DNA of 54,039 nt from a virus (Duplodnaviria > Heunggongvirae > Uroviricota > Caudoviricetes). Below the pieces are notes generated by a model, which was given only the letters and a program-made list of their open reading frames with translations, searched no databases and was not told where the DNA came from. Below, one piece after another: positions 9,505 to 45,292 of the stretch. Numbering within the stretch: the stretch's first letter is position 1; every line of letters starts with the position of its first letter. The stretch lies in the IMG/VR virus record IMGVR_UViG_2541047747_000003. One strand, written 5' to 3'. A program made the position numbers and the translations under genes.

Positions 9505-10152
9505 ATGAAAACAAAATGGTATGACTTAGCAAAGCAGCTCATGCGGGCGCAGGGCATGAGCCAGGATTCACTCGCGGATCGTATGGGGATAACTAAAGGC
9601 GGCCTGTCACACTGGCTGAACGGTCGCCGAGAGCCAAATCTTGAAGATATTGCGCGGATTATGCGCGAGCTTGGTCGTCGGCAGTTTACTGTTACACATG
9701 ATGGCATGGTCATTGATGATTCTGTTTCTAATACACTTCAGGCCGTGCCGCCGCGTGATTTAGGTAGTTACCCGGTTATTGACTGGAAGGACACAGTAAA
9801 CAATATGGATGACGCAAGGCGTTCAGCATTACGACACGTTACGACTAGCGTTATTTGTTCAGATGACAGTTACTGGCTGGTTGCCAAAGGTGAATCAATG
9901 AACGCGCCGCAGGGGTTGAGCATCCCGGCGGGGACGATGATACTTGTGGACCCGCACGCGCCAGCTATTGACGGCAAACTGGTTATAGCCCAGCTTGAGG
10001 AAGGGCAGATACCGACGTTTAAACAGTTGATTATTGATGGAGGTCAAAGGCTTTTACGTTCGCTCAATCCGCTGTATCCGCCAATCCCTATGAATCCAGA
10101 ATCAAAAATTATAGGCGTGGTGGTTGATGCGAAGATCGTAAACCTGCCATAA
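9505..10152 (+). CDS. CI-like repressor (HTH plus S24/LexA-type peptidase domain)
   Basis: 215 aa; N-terminal HTH (QDSLADRMGITKGGLSHWLNG), C-terminal S24-like domain with GESM serine motif and a downstream lysine. Confidence 0.85.
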   Translation: MKTKWYDLAKQLMRAQGMSQDSLADRMGITKGGLSHWLNGRREPNLEDIARIMRELGRRQFTVTHDGMVIDDSVSNTLQAVPPRDLGSYPVIDWKDTVNNMDDARRSALRHVTTSVICSDDSYWLVAKGESMNAPQGLSIPAGTMILVDPHAPAIDGKLVIAQLEEGQIPTFKQLIIDGGQRLLRSLNPLYPPIPMNPESKIIGVVVDAKIVNLP

Positions 10153-10275
10153 ACATTAGCCGCCGGATGGCGGCTTTTCTTTGCCTGGAAAACACCAAAA
10201 CGTAAACAGAAAACGTTATTTATTGTTTAAATATCAATAGCATATAAAATATTTTAAAAAAGTATACAAAATGGA

Positions 10276-14358: not shown

Positions 14359-14456
14359 CAGCGTGATTGCGATCACATAAATATACATTTTGTATTGCGA
14401 TCGCATATCCGTTTTGTAAACTGAAATTAAGAGGTTTACGGCACGGAGGAAACAAG

Positions 14457-17744: not shown

Positions 17745-17903
17745 AGTTTACAAAATGGCATCATTGCGTGATGCGGATCACATAATGGCGCTTTTTGCCT
17801 TGTTTGGGGGTATCCATTTTGTATACTTCAAGCAAACAAAATGCTCTTTAAAAATCCGGCAGCGCTGAAATGCGTAGAAATCACCTGAAAAGGAGAGAGC
17901 ATT

Positions 17904-23613: not shown

Positions 23614-23711
23614 ATGTGATCTGTATCACAAGGTTTACGAAATGGCATTGTTTCGGCAGTGCCATTTTGTTATAAAGAAGCTGAAGAGAGAACGATGCGG
23701 AGGGTAGAAAA

Positions 23712-38089: not shown

Positions 38090-38788
38090 ATGATCCATGT
38101 TCGTACAGGACAATTTGCTGCCGTGGTGAACGGTAAGCGCTATGAGTTTAATCCTTGCTTTGCTGCGATGGCTAAAATCGGCAACGATAGTGAGCTTGTC
38201 GAATATTTCGCACTTATCCACGGCGGCAAATATCCATCACGATTGCCAGCAGATCCAGACCTACGCAATCGCATTCTGGCGCGGTGTTATGGTGAAATAG
38301 TTCAGACATCAATGCACATCCTGAAATGTTGCTCAGACGACGAAATAGGCCCGTTATTGGGCGAATGCTGGTTTACTCCTTCGGGTAAGTTAAAGTTAAA
38401 GCCCGGATTAATGCCGATCGAGGATATCATCACGCTTGCGCAGCACTGCATGTACCACGGTCTTATTGGTGATGGCCCGGAAGAAGAGTCCGGGGAAATC
38501 CCGGAAGGGGAATATAAGCCGACTTTTAACGTCCTTGAATTCGTCTATTCTGCCGTTGCTCACCTGGGCTTGTCAGAATCGGAAGCATGGAATATGACAA
38601 TGACCGGATATAGGGCCGCTGTACGCGCTAAAACGCCGCCAGACGAAAGAAACGAGAAAAGCAAGCCAAACATTCACATAAATAAACGTGCTTATGACGA
38701 GCAAATGGAGGCCGCTAAAAAGGCACTAGAAAGAATGAAAAATCGTGAGCAAGAAAAGCCCGGTAGATCCGGGCGTTTTGCTAATTGA
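38090..38788 (+). CDS. Putative tail assembly chaperone
   Basis: Start chosen at MIHVRTGQF; positional call between tube and tape measure; no frameshift site identified. Confidence 0.45.
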   Translation: MIHVRTGQFAAVVNGKRYEFNPCFAAMAKIGNDSELVEYFALIHGGKYPSRLPADPDLRNRILARCYGEIVQTSMHILKCCSDDEIGPLLGECWFTPSGKLKLKPGLMPIEDIITLAQHCMYHGLIGDGPEEESGEIPEGEYKPTFNVLEFVYSAVAHLGLSESEAWNMTMTGYRAAVRAKTPPDERNEKSKPNIHINKRAYDEQMEAAKKALERMKNREQEKPGRSGRFAN

Positions 38789-39155
38789 AATCTTTAATTG
38801 CTGTACCTGGTGAACTGTGTGTGATTGTATTGTATACAGACTTTGCCTTACTGCGATCTTTCCATTCTTTTAGGATGCAGTTATCAAACTTTGCGATAAC
38901 CCTTGAAGGGGATAATTCTTCAACATCCATGTAAGTAAATCCTATCGTGCTGGTTACTGAATACCATACGTGATAACTATAATTACCGTCATGCTCGATT
39001 CTTTGTGGTTCCCCCATTATTTTATTCACTTGCTCACAAGTCATTCCAACTTGCAAATTTTTATCAGCTAACTTAACGAAATCAGTTGATCTTGCGCACC
39101 CTGTAAGAGCTAAAGCCATAACACCAATGAGAACCGCTTTGATTATTTTTTTCAT
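38781..39155 (-). CDS. Lipoprotein with BamE/SmpA-OmlA-like domain (accessory gene)
   Basis: Signal peptide plus lipobox LTGC; LQVGMTCEQVNKIMGEP resembles the BamE fold signature; AT-rich; opposite strand to the tail genes. Confidence 0.6.
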   Translation of the reverse strand: MKKIIKAVLIGVMALALTGCARSTDFVKLADKNLQVGMTCEQVNKIMGEPQRIEHDGNYSYHVWYSVTSTIGFTYMDVEELSPSRVIAKFDNCILKEWKDRSKAKSVYNTITHSSPGTAIKDFN

Positions 39156-39165
39156 GATTTACCCC

Positions 39166-39825
39166 TTAATTCCAGTTGCAAGCGTTTTTCACTTTGTCGA
39201 TGTGGTTATAAAGACCATCAATGTTAAACACTGCTTTCTCAATGTCGCCAGCTTCCGGCACTACTTCAATGATGAATTGTTTTTCGTTAACCAGTTTTTT
39301 AATCATTGGGATGGCTTTTTTGCCGTCCCATAATCCAAGAGCTTTATAATTAGTTGACCGCCACCACTCAGTAGCTACAGCTTTGTGAACGCCGATCCGG
39401 TAGTTAATATAAGTAGTGTCCCCGGCGTCAGTTACATGGTGTGACCATGCTACGAACATTTTTGTTTTATTACCCTGGCAAGCGATTGTTAATACCGGTT
39501 TATTCTTATCCTGTGCCTTCAGTGTCGGGAAAGCATCAAGACTTCCGCTGAATTGTTCTGCTTTCACAAAAAGGAATACGTTTTTTGCGTCCTGCATATC
39601 ATCTTTTCTTTCAACTACAAGCCACTGTTTACCAGCATTTTCTTTTTCTAACTGTGCATCGTATGCGGCTTGTTTTGCTTGTTGTTCTGCAAGCCATTTA
39701 GCATTTTTCTCTGCTAATGCTTGTTGCTCTTGATTGGTCACTATAGGCGCTTTTTCATTATCCTCATTGCAACCAACCAGACCCAATACCGCCGCAATCA
39801 TTGCCACTTTTGCTAACCGTTTCAT
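39166..39825 (-). CDS. Lipoprotein (accessory gene)
   Basis: 219 aa; signal peptide with lipobox LVGC; Gln/Ala-rich linker; opposite strand to the tail genes. Confidence 0.6.
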   Translation of the reverse strand: MKRLAKVAMIAAVLGLVGCNEDNEKAPIVTNQEQQALAEKNAKWLAEQQAKQAAYDAQLEKENAGKQWLVVERKDDMQDAKNVFLFVKAEQFSGSLDAFPTLKAQDKNKPVLTIACQGNKTKMFVAWSHHVTDAGDTTYINYRIGVHKAVATEWWRSTNYKALGLWDGKKAIPMIKKLVNEKQFIIEVVPEAGDIEKAVFNIDGLYNHIDKVKNACNWN

Positions 39826-39872: not shown

Positions 39873-39912
39873 TATACAAAATGGAGTCGTTGAAGTAAAG
39901 CCATTTTGTATA
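39873..39912. promoter_or_regulatory. Perfect 12-bp inverted repeat TATACAAAATGG / CCATTTTGTATA with 16-bp spacer
   Basis: Intergenic, between the divergent lipoprotein gene and the tape measure gene; a copy pair of the dispersed motif. Confidence 0.6.
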
Positions 39913-39952
39913 AAATAGATACACAGATCACATTTTTGCATGAGGTTAAATC

Positions 39953-42298: not shown

Positions 42299-42327
42299 AA
42301 ACCCCGGTGCAATGCCGGGGTTATTTT
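42299..42327 (+). terminator. Rho-independent terminator after the tape measure gene
   Basis: CCCCGGTG-CAAT-GCCGGGG then TTATTTTT; near-identical to the terminator at 35713. Confidence 0.7.
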
Positions 42328-42381: not shown

Positions 42382-42636
42382 TCACTTATGAGTGCCTTTC
42401 ACGCCACATAACTTGTTATAGGCACGGTGCTCAACAATTAACCAAACCTTCAAATCTTCGCTAAACAGCCTCCAATCAAGATTGATATCCATTTTGTATC
42501 CGTAACCGTCGCGTAACTTTTTGGGGTAAACTTCTTTTCTCAGAAAGGCTTTAAGTAATTCCTTACCTTTCTTGATGATCCGGTCCTGTGCGTTTTTCTG
42601 TGCTTTCAGATTTCTGTCAATCGCTACCAGTTTCAT
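42382..42636 (-). CDS. Possible RelE/ParE-like toxin (84 aa), low confidence
   Basis: Small basic protein; C-terminal hydrophobic strand ending in HR (VWLIVEHR) resembles the RelE/ParE C-terminus; GGGGTGAG RBS; follows a 50-aa ORF. Confidence 0.35.
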   Translation of the reverse strand: MKLVAIDRNLKAQKNAQDRIIKKGKELLKAFLRKEVYPKKLRDGYGYKMDINLDWRLFSEDLKVWLIVEHRAYNKLCGVKGTHK

Positions 42637-42659
42637 AACTCACCCCATCATCCTTAGTT

Positions 42660-42812
42660 AAGTGCCTTCAGGAAGAAGTCCCGGTATTCATCTTCTTTCG
42701 CATTCATCATGAATTGACCGTATTTGAATGCGTCGTCGAAACCCTTAACGATTGCTATTTCCACTTGTTCGAATGCGTTATTTAGCATTACTACTACATA
42801 GCGTTTCATTTT
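42660..42812 (-). CDS. Hypothetical small protein (50 aa), possible antitoxin partner
   Basis: Hand-translated MKRYVVVMLNNAFEQVEIAIVKGFDDAFKYGQFMMNAKEDEYRDFFLKALN; upstream of and close to the 84-aa ORF. Confidence 0.3.
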
Positions 42813-42976
42813 GGGCCTCCTTCGTTGGTACTACTTTCTTCTTGCTTTCTATATACATCTTGTTGCGTGCTATGTGAAGCCATTTTGTAAACTAGCTATA
42901 ATCATTGTGACAATGATCTTATTTTTCGCGTAGAAGCGCGTAAAGATATATACAAAATGTAACTTGTGGGGGTTTT

Positions 42977-43330: not shown

Positions 43331-43527
43331 TGGGGGTTGTTATGTACGGGACTTGTGTAGTTGACAAAACTTACGCTTTTACATTGTTTGACGACTATGA
43401 GATCAACGACCTTACTGTAAAAGCTGACAACGGCGATATATGGTATCTTCACGACGTTGGTGATGGGTACGTTGGGTGTAGATCCCGGGAAGGGAAGGAG
43501 GTTTTATTTTTGGTTGATGGCGTATAA
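43330..43527 (+). CDS. Hypothetical small protein
   Basis: 65-aa ORF followed by a terminator. Confidence 0.35.
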   Translation: MGVVMYGTCVVDKTYAFTLFDDYEINDLTVKADNGDIWYLHDVGDGYVGCRSREGKEVLFLVDGV

Positions 43528-43533
43528 ACACGA

Positions 43534-43561
43534 CCCCGCGCGAAGCGGGGTTATTTTTATT
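43534..43561 (+). terminator. Rho-independent terminator
   Basis: CCCCGCG-CGAA-GCGGGG followed by TTATTTTTATT. Confidence 0.6.
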
Positions 43562-43683
43562 CTATTTCCATTAATGCTATATTTTCTGCTATCGTTTTCC
43601 AGTCCAGATCTACAGCATGAACGCCAAATACTATCAACCCCATTATTATTAGCGCCAAAACTTTTATTTTTATAATTAGTCAC

Positions 43684-43932
43684 CTATAAGTTATCACGCA
43701 GATAATTAACGCCCTTATCAGTGACGAATGAATGGTTAACCTGGTTTTCATCCGTCATGATGATGAATAACTTTTCATGTAGGTATTTCGCTTTCGGGTA
43801 CAGCGTTAAACAGACCTGGTACAGTATCCCGCGCTCAATCAGCAAATCAATAAATTCGTGTTCATGATAACCGATGAGGCGGGCGGCCTGTTTCAACGTG
43901 TACACATAATCACCGTGATTGCGCCGCCCCAT
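43684..43932 (-). CDS. Hypothetical protein (accessory gene, minus strand)
   Basis: 82-aa ORF last in a three-gene minus-strand cassette. Confidence 0.45.
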   Translation of the reverse strand: MGRRNHGDYVYTLKQAARLIGYHEHEFIDLLIERGILYQVCLTLYPKAKYLHEKLFIIMTDENQVNHSFVTDKGVNYLRDNL

Positions 43933-43941
43933 GTTGCCGCC

Positions 43942-44289
43942 TTATTTATCGAATGCTGAAAGGTTATCGATACAGAAATCTTTCGCCGCTTTTTCGTATT
44001 CGCGTTTTGCTTCTGGATCGTCAGCCGGGAAACCTTTTGCGTGTATTTCACCAGGGCAAGACTGGTCCATAGAATCTGCATAATAAGCAGTGAAGCTACC
44101 ATTAATATCTTTCGGGTTCATATCTTCCACCTCATCAACTATCTGTACCGGATTAGCAGCATATTTCACTGGATGGCCTAAACTACATTCAAGAATCCTG
44201 CCTTCTTCCAGGGCTACTTCTTCGCTATCAAATAATCCGAAACACTCCTTGCTACCACTTAACCACACATCAAGACTGTATTTTTTCAT
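43942..44289 (-). CDS. Hypothetical protein (accessory gene, minus strand)
   Basis: Start chosen at MKKYSLDVWL with a GAGG RBS. Confidence 0.4.
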   Translation of the reverse strand: MKKYSLDVWLSGSKECFGLFDSEEVALEEGRILECSLGHPVKYAANPVQIVDEVEDMNPKDINGSFTAYYADSMDQSCPGEIHAKGFPADDPEAKREYEKAAKDFCIDNLSAFDK

Positions 44290-44458
44290 TTTTGTTAGCC
44301 TCATATTTGACAGGTTCGATCTGGTATCCCAAAAGGCGGTCATCCTCAGCAAGTAAAAGCGCGTCAACCAATGCTTCACCCTCGTCGTCATACAGGGCGA
44401 TAACCTTTTCCCTACCGTCTGTCATGAATACCGTCAACTTCCATAGCTTTTCAGTCAT
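44270..44458 (-). CDS. Hypothetical acidic protein (accessory gene, minus strand)
   Basis: Start chosen at MTEKLWKL with a GGAGGTG RBS; dispersed-motif copy immediately upstream. Confidence 0.45.
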   Translation of the reverse strand: MTEKLWKLTVFMTDGREKVIALYDDEGEALVDALLLAEDDRLLGYQIEPVKYEANKNEKIQS

Positions 44459-44587
44459 AACGCACCTCCGCGCCATTTTGTTAACTATGCTTCCGTTTGA
44501 GTAAAATATACATATTGTAAAAACCGCGATCAATCCATTTTGGTATGATTTAGCGTGACGCAGATCACAGAATGACAAGGTGAGAAA

Positions 44588-45292
44588 ATGCGCAATATTC
44601 CGAGAGAAATGATTATTGATTCCGTCGATGCCGGAGTCGGCGCGGTAATTGACTTGTTTGAATTAGACCTCACGCCCCTGGGTGGCGAGGTTATCCGCTT
44701 CCATTCCGGCGTGAATGGCTATTACGGCCCGGTTATCTGGAAGGGGGTGGCTTACAACAGCTACCCTATCGAGGCCACTGGCTTCGAAATGAAAAACGAG
44801 GGTGTCTATTCACGCCCGCAAATGGTTGTAGCCAACATTGGCGGCCTAATCACCGGGATGAATAACGATTTCAACGACCTGCGAGGAATGAAAGTTACAC
44901 GCCGCCAGGTGGAAGTAAAATACCTGGACGCCATCAACTTCCCCAACGGCAACCCGGATGCAGATCCGTCTATCGAGGCGGTGTCTTTTTACGTCGTTGA
45001 GGCGATGAGCGAAGAAACAGCCGACCAGGTGCAATATGAGCTGTCAACGCCAATTGATGCTGACAAGGCGGTTATCCCAGGGCGCACAATCCTTGCTGAC
45101 GTTTGCCAATGGCAATATCGCGGCGACGGTTGCGGATACAGTGGCGGCCCTGTAGCTACTGATAAAGACGAATCGACCAGCGATCCAAAGCTGGATAAAT
45201 GCAGCCACCGCCTGAGCGGTTGCCGTTTACGTTTCCCGCGCCCGAATCCGTTACCAATTTCATGTTTCCCAGGATCGAGCAAGGTGGGTTGA
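44588..45292 (+). CDS. Minor tail protein L
   Basis: 234 aa with lambda gpL-like size and position, C-terminal cysteine cluster (CQW...CGY...C..C). Confidence 0.75.
   Translation: MRNIPREMIIDSVDAGVGAVIDLFELDLTPLGGEVIRFHSGVNGYYGPVIWKGVAYNSYPIEATGFEMKNEGVYSRPQMVVANIGGLITGMNNDFNDLRGMKVTRRQVEVKYLDAINFPNGNPDADPSIEAVSFYVVEAMSEETADQVQYELSTPIDADKAVIPGRTILADVCQWQYRGDGCGYSGGPVATDKDESTSDPKLDKCSHRLSGCRLRFPRPNPLPISCFPGSSKVG

Follow-up and report, generated by a model that had tools for sequence, protein, structure and literature searches.

What is a small operon, read against the direction of the late genes, doing in the middle of the tail-gene cluster of a temperate coliphage? The question is raised by IMG/VR virus record IMGVR_UViG_2541047747_000003 (54,039 nucleotides; the whole stretch analysed, hereafter the window), in which three small open reading frames (ORFs), orfA, orfB, and orfC, lie on the minus strand between a gene for a minor tail protein of the lambda M family (PF05939, E 1e-27 in Pfam) and one for a protein of the lambda L family (PF05100, E 9e-72 in Pfam). 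A preliminary description of the sequence had taken them for an insertion, possibly a lysogenic conversion or exclusion cassette. Here, we report that the cassette is, on comparative grounds, a conserved, nonstructural operon and a lineage-specific, moron-type insertion at a hotspot, and that its constant parts are OrfC, which carries a KilAC domain and little else, and the C-terminal tail of OrfB. Elements of this kind, moron operons encoding a KilAC protein that stands alone, are already known; new are its full anatomy (a convergent gene, p61; the remnant of a further gene, h8; a predicted nested product of orfB, B'; and the probable paralogy of OrfA with the OrfB N-terminal domain), a natural deletion, the pattern of insertions in a sister clade, and a shared promoter layout.

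The window represents the entire genome of a temperate coliphage of the mEp021/mEpimmI group. Between 42.2 and 44.7 kb it is 82 to 90% identical to phages mEp021, mEp554, mEp013, mEp010, mEp044, mEp515, and MagusPhagus; between 43.5 and 44.6 kb it is 99.8% identical to a prophage of Escherichia coli M1/5, and this segment is present in 35 of 5,426 complete E. coli genomes. For comparison, 52 M-L intervals were collected: that of the window itself and those of annotated phages, of E. coli prophages, and of IMG/VR contigs. GenBank already annotates the cassette genes in mEp021 (gp71 to gp74, with gp71 named “putative antirepressor”), and the paper describing the group lists a KilAC-like protein among near-core genes, the cassette itself not being analysed there. 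The text of the mEp021 paper does not mention gp69 to gp75 (its 16 virion proteins detected by mass spectrometry are given in a figure, which lay outside this check).

All three ORFs stand at the positions and lengths first described (Table 1), and each has a Shine-Dalgarno (SD) site. They matched PHROG families (orfA, phrog_29559, E 9e-47; orfB, phrog_38567, E 1e-80; orfC, E 6e-22), and RefSeq has the same three coding sequences in the M1/5 prophage. Pairwise ratios of nonsynonymous to synonymous substitution rates (dN/dS) were 0.24 for orfA, 0.23 for orfB, and 0.11 for orfC (37 to 41 distinct relatives), and the ORFs were intact in 50 to 52 of the 52 loci; by these measures, all cassette genes are under purifying selection. 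Longer ORF calls (149 and 102 amino acids [aa]) were rejected because the homologues start with MKKYSL/MQKYxL and with an SD-preceded MTEK/MDDK. An ATG inside the dispersed motif described below was likewise discarded as the orfA start, since in some relatives (e.g., locus L016) it does not share the orfA reading frame.

OrfC is the most conserved gene product of the cassette and the one with a recognisable domain. It matched the Pfam ANT/KilAC family (PF03374) with 29.4 bits (cutoff, 25.3; E 1.1e-6), residues 10 to 82 aligning with profile positions 23 to 105 of 108, and precomputed PF03374 matches were found for six of seven OrfC homologues. The TxKG motif reported for CreP (see below) and for the C terminus of P1 KilA is present as T71-D72-K73-G74; T71, D72, and G74 do not vary among the aligned sequences. 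The protein consists of the KilAC domain alone, without the N-terminal AntA/AntB, Bro-N, pRha, or KilA-N domain of two-domain antirepressors, and outside the group it aligned only to the C-terminal parts of larger Rha/Ant proteins (32 to 38% identity). Its fold is a winged helix of the MerR/excisionase (Xis) type, the best structural neighbours being DNA-binding winged helices, and its neutral isoelectric point (pI 7.0) fits protein binding at least as well as DNA binding.

OrfB is acidic (pI 4.4) and consists of a variable, folded N-terminal domain (residues 1 to ~55) and a highly conserved C-terminal module (residues ~66 to 115; ADSMDQSCPGEIHAKGFPADDPEAKREYEKAAKDFCIDNL). Among 58 homologues, the C-terminal half was near-invariant, with conserved Cys78, His83, and Cys106, and dN/dS was 0.26 for the N-terminal half and 0.135 for the C-terminal half. 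Structure prediction had been proposed as a check in the preliminary description; for OrfB, AlphaFold2 modelled residues 1 to 50 as a beta-beta-alpha-beta fold (predicted local distance difference test score, ~90), and the remainder, scoring below 60, stayed at low confidence. Since the C-terminal half is conserved and its model is nevertheless of low confidence, we read it as a segment that may fold on a partner. OrfB is an orphan family, with four representative clusters below 1e-10 in a profile search of 1.84 billion representatives; stand-alone 56-aa versions of the OrfB tail form separate clusters in the same library.

The tail may also be made separately. Met57 of OrfB is near-invariant among homologues, and 5 nucleotides (nt) upstream of its ATG the sequence GGTGGAA was found in all recovered haplotypes but one (GAGGA). 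The Val (GTG) and Glu (GAA) codons within this SD site show no synonymous variation, although the proportion of synonymous differences (pS) in that half of the gene is 0.58. Two loci have lost the integrity of the N-terminal domain, one by a premature stop (L007) and one by an apparent frameshift (L049); both keep the SD site and the 59-aa tail ORF. We infer from this pattern that the product B' is translated independently from an internal start.

OrfA is a small beta-beta-alpha-beta protein, also acidic (pI 4.4), of a narrow family found in E. coli only. It aligned over its whole length with the OrfB N-terminal domain (hhalign probability, 77%; E 2e-5; 48 columns), so that the two are probably fast-evolving paralogues. 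Several apparent relationships were rejected. The name “transporter” given by the Prokaryotic Genome Annotation Pipeline to OrfA homologues of 51 to 67 aa (e.g., WP_086611599.1 in L004 and P0061 to P0066) does not suit soluble, acidic proteins with no family match. PDB phmmer matches of OrfA to designed armadillo repeats (E 9e-6) and of OrfB to RecA (hexamer fusions; E 6e-8) are artefacts: in these repeat or tandem-fusion targets, weak scores of the single copies (4.5 bits each for RecA) add up to a low whole-sequence E-value, and in neither case does any single stretch pass. Kinship of OrfA or the OrfB N-terminal domain with the 51-aa partner of a ParE-like toxin encoded elsewhere in the tail region (see below) was ruled out (hhalign probability, 0.2%). 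Fold matches for both proteins were far below significance; in BFVD, the OrfB N-terminal domain gave none at E <= 0.001 and resembled only small phage proteins of the DUF7336 type.

That the cassette is an insertion, as first proposed, is borne out by several lines of evidence. Because a search with cassette proteins would presuppose their presence, IMG/VR was scanned with the L protein, a query independent of the cassette. The scan recovered 44 contigs of the mEpimmI type (L 85 to 100% identical), in 42 of which both M and L could be located; orfB and orfC lay between them in 41 of the 42, so the cassette is conserved as a unit. The remaining contig (L079; IMGVR_UViG_3300045988_076424) has 125 bp between M and L, the result of a clean deletion, and because it retains the promoter region it is a deletion derivative and not the ancestral empty site. 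The cassette is thus dispensable for the M-L-K-I-J gene order, a variant without it existing in nature. In a sister clade (IMG/VR loci L097 to L132; L 70 to 72% identical), the M-L gap was ~36 bp in 18 of 36 loci, and the other 18 carried unrelated inserts of ~290 to 1,290 bp. In most of these inserts, a short ORF on the plus strand faces a convergent one on the minus strand (58 to 268 aa), the minus-strand products including a DUF6602/NucC-like PD-(D/E)xK nuclease (L114) and a retropepsin-like aspartyl protease (L132). Their variety marks the M-L junction as a recurrent insertion hotspot, and it is because M and L are adjacent or differently separated in sister phages that we class the cassette as a moron-type insertion. 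The GC content is also low (0.36 to 0.45 across 43550 to 44600, versus 0.50 to 0.54 in M, L, and K), and a promoter and a terminator of its own are predicted for the element.

The location between M and L stands; the unit is larger than the three genes first described. On the late-operon strand, p61 was found in 51 of the 52 loci (dN/dS, 0.135), was absent from the sister clade, and was deleted along with the cassette in L079; judged by this distribution, it belongs to the same insertion. On the minus strand, orfC is followed by the remnant of h8, of which a 33-aa ORF with a TTG start (43658..43557) remains in the window and its closest kin. In relatives, h8 encodes a hydrophobic, signal-peptide-like product of 38 to 49 aa (MKIEVLALIIMGLIVFGVHA...); in 37 of 52 loci its ORF opens with ATG and runs for 28 aa or more, and the full-length gene has an SD site (GGTGA) directly after the orfC stop; its dN/dS was 0.19 (22 distinct sequences). 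The terminator said to bound one side of the cassette is present as a hairpin with a strong plus-strand T-run and a weaker one on the minus strand; the mEp021 annotation enters it as two terminators.

Across relatives, the operon reads A, B, a gp72-like gene (75 to 93 aa), C, x14 (67 aa), h8, and the terminator. The gp72-like gene, x14, and h8 are optional, and A is replaced or undetected in some. Pfam and PHROG searches with the gp72-like protein, x14, x20, x23, and h8 gave nothing useful. Mean pairwise amino acid distances were 0.36 for the OrfB N-terminal domain, 0.26 for OrfA, 0.083 for the OrfB tail, 0.054 for OrfC, and 0.051 for L; the first two thus diverge 5 to 7 times faster than the flanking genes. 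Spearman correlations of pairwise distances among p61, OrfC, the OrfB C- and N-terminal parts, and OrfA revealed nothing above linkage (0.1 to 0.35 between cassette parts), and such covariation tests are uninformative here because recombination has scrambled the region at a sub-gene scale. Neither Pfam nor PHROG gave a tail-family annotation for any cassette protein, and the genes run opposite to the late-operon strand. NCBIfam likewise had no match to any of them, known toxin-antitoxin families had none to A, B, or C, and PADLOC-DB v2.0 (a 2023 library that predates the 2024 papers on Tab and Tai) had none to A, B, C, or p61 at E <= 1.

Table 1. Coordinates and properties of the cassette, its control elements, and related motif copies in the window
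Feature	Position	Strand	Description
orfA	44458..44270	-	62 aa; first operon gene; SD GGAGGTG at 44469-44463, 4 nt before ATG
orfB	44289..43942	-	115 aa; 20-nt overlap with orfA
B' (predicted nested in-frame product)	43942..44121	-	59 aa; start at Met57 of orfB; SD GAGGTGG at 44133-44127
orfC	43932..43684	-	82 aa; start 9 nt past orfB
h8 remnant (fourth operon gene)	43673..43557	-	ATG changed to ATA at 43673-43671
Intrinsic-terminator hairpin	43532..43552	both	Bidirectional, common to p61 and the minus-strand operon; scored on both strands
p61	43342..43527	+	61-aa acidic protein; late-operon strand, directly after M; phrog_3249; converges on the cassette
Natural deletion in L079	43344..44474		1,131 bp, clean; removes p61, terminator, h8, orfC, orfB, orfA, and the orfA SD
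Cassette promoter (predicted, sigma70 type)	44533-44505	-	TTGATC-17-TATATT; consensus match
Dispersed-motif copy TTAACAAAATGG	44484-44473	-	3 nt upstream of the orfA SD, after the predicted transcript start
L promoter (predicted)	44478-44507	+	TTGTTA-18-TAAAAT; overlaps the cassette promoter; -35 supplied by the TTAACAAAATGG motif copy
Degenerate second motif copy ATACCAAAATGG	44535..44546	-	Immediately upstream of the cassette -35; motif-like ACCAAAATGG abuts the -35
CRP-like palindrome TGTGATCTGCGTCACG (minus-strand reading)	44555..44570		17 nt upstream of the L start codon
CRP-like palindromes beside motif copies	14363-14377, 17768-17782, 23615-23630, 39922-39936, 44555-44570		Window scan
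TTWACAAAATGG copies	5147, 7631, 9420, 10263, 14409, 17747, 17814, 23634, 23662, 39873, 39901, 42880, 44473, 51915, 51944		15 copies of the dispersed 12-mer

The 129-bp control region between orfA and L is conserved more than the genes themselves, and the -35, -10, and spacer of the predicted cassette promoter are near-invariant among 38 distinct relatives. A copy of a dispersed motif had been noticed beside the first ribosome-binding site (GGAGGTG), and it is indeed there; relatives carry it with an invariant GTYAACAAAATGG. The 12-mer TTWACAAAATGG occurs 15 times in the window (1.15 expected from shuffles) and abuts a -35 in four places, with a good -10 17 bp further on; with respect to predicted promoters, the motif is promoter associated. 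Besides the cassette, the layout motif-N1-(-35)-N17-(-10) was found at 10263(+), as the promoter upstream of an N-like antiterminator gene, and at 39901(-) and 42880(-), where it heads two further tail-region cassettes on the minus strand. A single promoter class, shared with the early promoter, thus seems to serve all three antisense cassettes. Two motif copies flank the gene for the CI-like repressor Rep021 (9505..10152), and two pairs are arranged as inverted repeats around 16-bp spacers; of the single copies, most have the orientation that reads CCATTTTG along the main operons. The motif recalls dispersed asymmetric repressor sites such as the C1 operators of phage P1 and the stoperators of mycobacteriophage L5.

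A second repeated element accompanies the first. The palindrome TGTGATC-N4-TCAC(A), which resembles a CRP site, had seven matches in the window at no more than one mismatch (0.76 expected), and the four exact copies and one with a single mismatch lie beside motif copies. At 14.4, 17.8, and 23.6 kb, it lies exactly 31 nt upstream of CCRTTTTG, forming a composite element, and before the tape-measure and L genes it lies 17 to 20 nt from the start codon; at L, the TGTGAT and TCAC are invariant in relatives. By eye, neither a LexA box nor a repressor operator was seen in the control region. The sequence CTGTGATC of the window reads TTGTGATC in most relatives, and the sole CTG..CAC-like sequence in relatives reads TTG. 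The cassette region has neither the GCAAGT repeats nor the TTGACTCG..CGAGTCAA inverted repeat that lie close to the repressor gene.

The two other antisense cassettes also mean that the tail-gene order M-L-K-I-J, described earlier as otherwise uninterrupted, lies in a tail operon that is broken at two further places. One cassette, on the minus strand at 42382-42809, separates the tape-measure gene from M. Its first gene specifies a 51-aa protein (42809..42654) and its second an 84-aa ParE-like toxin (PF24732, E 2e-11; RefSeq name, “ParE family toxin-like protein”), and the two are probably a toxin-antitoxin pair; the promoter predicted for this cassette reads motif-TTCACA-17-TATATA, and a bidirectional terminator (42300-42322) closes it. 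The other (38781-39825, minus strand), upstream of the tape-measure gene, encodes a 219-aa protein of the VasI family (type VI secretion system VasI/EvfG; PF11319, E 1e-15) and a 124-aa protein with weak BamE/DUF7738 matches. Two repeat families were also recorded. A 35-nt direct repeat (TATTTTTCGCGTAGMAGCGCGTAAA...; 30540-30574 and 42920-42954; 86% identical), with a short GC hairpin after a T-run, has one copy in the divergent region upstream of M. The gene for the J-like tail fibre (1,656 aa) holds six copies of a 59-nt unit (49294-50381) at a spacing of 108 nt (36 codons) or multiples and an additional 59-nt pair 678 nt apart; these repeats encode “D.AIADE.SAR..AIS.VNAS” segments in the central fibre.

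What, then, might the cassette do? Neither of the functions suggested at the outset, lysogenic conversion and exclusion, gained support: PADLOC gave no match, and the KilAC domain points to action on an intracellular protein, of the antirepressor, Kil, or SOS-modulator type, rather than to surface exclusion in the classical sense. Reasoning from sequence and from analogy with characterised KilAC proteins, we favour, tentatively, a reading in which OrfC, partnered by OrfB and B', acts on a conserved protein of the host or of a prophage. OrfC would be an effector that binds a conserved intracellular protein and arrests or re-programmes the cell, candidate targets being the cell-division machinery, the RecA/SOS machinery, and a prophage repressor. 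A KilAC gene behind a good promoter in a prophage would have to be either repressed or countered by a neutraliser. The latter role suits the OrfB tail, which is conserved, always accompanies OrfC, is modelled with low confidence alone, and is kept when the rest of OrfB decays; bound to OrfC, OrfB or B' would neutralise or tune it. OrfA and the fast-diversifying OrfB N-terminal domain would set specificity or sense a variable input, and read-through of the late operon, antisense to the cassette, would silence it while virions are being made. The mEp021/mEpimmI group is reported to use Q-like antitermination.

The adjacent gene order, the co-occurrence of B and C, and the conserved, low-confidence B tail would fit a type II toxin-antitoxin pair, toxicity and binding being putative. 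Several observations weigh against the favoured reading. Binding between B and C rests on their parallel conservation and co-occurrence, with distance correlations (0.1 to 0.35) no higher than linkage would give, and a gp72-like gene stands between the two in some relatives. The promoter, terminator, and internal start are consensus-level predictions. The functional link from OrfC to the characterised KilAC proteins CreP, AriS, and Gp07 is one of domain, with no close similarity, so that their activities may not transfer. The OrfC fold is, moreover, typical of DNA-binding proteins, and OrfC could be a plain regulator.

Close to OrfC in architecture is CreP of Acinetobacter baylyi ADP1, which is bacteriostatic, causes filamentation, and was tested against FtsZ by coimmunoprecipitation (bioRxiv 10.1101/2024.01.05.574328). 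Like OrfC, it is a single KilAC domain of ~80 to 100 aa without an N-terminal partner domain, has a TxKG motif, and is of phage origin; unlike OrfC, which lies in a tail operon with putative protein partners, CreP (103 aa) is encoded at a CRISPR-cas locus, under repression from a CRISPR-like RNA. The two have no close sequence similarity, and CreP-like toxicity or FtsZ binding is only putative for OrfC. The KilAC domain of AriS of Listeria phage phi10403S blocks the SOS response, probably via RecA, and AriS and AriS-like proteins, regulators of temperate phages, share this domain with OrfC (PMC9043618), but they have two domains (AntA/AntB plus KilAC), come from Firmicutes, and are encoded in the early region, whereas OrfC is KilAC alone. 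Ant1/Ant2 of P1/P7, KilA, and Gp07 of staphylococcal phage phi11 belong to the same KilAC family and have antirepressor and/or host-killing, filamentation activity; the phi11 KilA domain alone is reported to inhibit growth of E. coli (PMC5944126). These proteins differ in size (~200 to 270 aa), in having an N-terminal KilA-N, Bro-N, or AntA domain, in being under the control of the immunity circuits, and in lying outside tail operons.

Among the alternatives, an antirepressor module is unlikely in our estimate: OrfC would inactivate the common CI-like repressor Rep021 or the repressors of coresident prophages, inducing them by a non-SOS route that A and B gate. KilAC is the signature domain of P1/P7 Ant, the GenBank label of mEp021 gp71 agrees, and the near-invariance of OrfC is what would be expected for recognition of the single repressor that defines immunity group I. 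Because mEpimmI lysogens are not UV inducible and Rep021 has no Ala-Gly cleavage site (PMC11893012), some other inducer is needed; in the Gifsy prophages, small antirepressors are encoded in an operon of three genes at a distance from the immunity region (PMC3121763). OrfC, however, is without the N-terminal domain (AntA, Bro-N, Rha, or KilA-N) of the characterised Ant proteins cited here, the 129-bp control region showed, by eye, no LexA box or recognisable stress-responsive operator, and a conserved, consensus-like sigma70 promoter would destabilise lysogeny unless repressed, with no repressor site identified. The Gifsy dinI-antirepressor-irsA operon (PMC3121763) shares with the cassette three genes placed outside the immunity region, and it has a small antirepressor and a repressor that RecA does not cleave; it differs in being LexA controlled and SOS inducible, in contrast to a cassette without a visible LexA box in lysogens that UV does not induce, and in encoding unrelated proteins. 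The lack of a RecA cleavage site in Rep021 and the failure of UV induction thus allow two readings, OrfC as antirepressor or OrfC as SOS blocker.

Unlikely to the same degree is a defence-and-antidote arrangement, in which the lysogen's cassette blocks superinfecting relatives and p61 protects the phage's own lytic cycle, as in the pairs Tab/anti-Tab (Pseudomonas aeruginosa JBD26; PMC10884400) and TaiEcA/AtiEcA (phi80; PMC11364771). Those too are small accessory genes that interrupt a late operon, with the counter-defence gene in the late transcript, and in phi80 the pair has a non-contiguous form, one gene in opposite orientation and its partner on the late transcript; they lie near terminase or Q genes, however, comprise one defence and one antidote gene, and have no known sequence relationship to the cassette. 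That p61 and the cassette are a single insertion (lost together in L079, p61 present in 51 of 52 loci, both absent from the sister clade), that the sister-clade junction repeatedly holds convergent pairs, one with a DUF6602/NucC-like nuclease, and that OrfA and the OrfB N-terminal domain diverge 5 to 7 times faster than the flanks, like specificity determinants in an arms race, all speak for it. The cassette proteins nevertheless have no PADLOC match, no homology to Tab or Tai was seen (though none was searched for), p61 distances do not covary with those of OrfA or the OrfB N-terminal domain (rho, 0.24 and 0.02), and cassette dN/dS values of 0.23 to 0.26 give no sign of positive selection. 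Rather less probable still is that OrfC is only the operon's DNA-binding regulator, similar to Xis, AlpA, or MerR, with A and B as the effectors, for instance early anti-defence or host-takeover inhibitors made upon infection or induction. The structural neighbours of OrfC would suit such a role, as would a promoter layout shared with the early promoter upstream of the N-like gene and the small size and acidity (pI 4.4) of A and B, a character associated with some phage inhibitor proteins; the neutral pI of OrfC, published data on isolated KilAC domains that point to protein targets, the insignificant fold matches of A and B, and the want of any link between the conserved intergenic motifs and OrfC argue the other way. 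Finally, the ORFs might be a decaying remnant, nonfunctional as a unit and kept by linkage to the tail genes. The lost h8 start codon and the natural deletion in L079 are what decay would leave, but dN/dS of 0.11 to 0.26 across all genes (22 to 41 distinct sequences), ORFs intact in 50 to 52 of 52 loci, and a promoter region conserved more than the coding sequence make this very improbable.

As an element, the cassette resembles the lambdoid morons (Juhala/Hendrix; HK97 gp15; PMC3594210), with which it shares a position between normally adjacent genes and a deviant composition; morons are independent transcription units, and here a promoter and a terminator are predicted from conserved consensus matches. 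It differs from them in having several genes, a variable accessory set, and a convergent partner on the late strand, and the prophage expression through which a moron benefits its host is putative here. If none of the proposed functions holds, it is one more uncharacterised moron. A fuller scheme, which we think quite doubtful, would make it a three-layer module, with OrfC as a KilAC effector, OrfB and B' as a nested antidote, convergent p61 and antisense late transcription as the off-switch, and OrfA and the OrfB N-terminal domain as sensors or specificity determinants. If true, a KilAC toxin would stand at the centre of a non-contiguous operon.

Phages of the mEpimmI group are reported to have been as prevalent as lambdoid phages among Nus-dependent coliphages isolated from human faeces (PMC11893012). 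If OrfC arrests division or blocks the RecA/SOS machinery, this could account for the failure of UV to induce mEpimmI lysogens. In the wider clade with lambda-like tails, the M-L junction merits a search for further prophage pairs of the defence/antidote or toxin/antidote kind, and within mEpimmI, a conserved KilAC operon with a separate promoter is an obvious candidate for a switch directed at the host or at the repressor.

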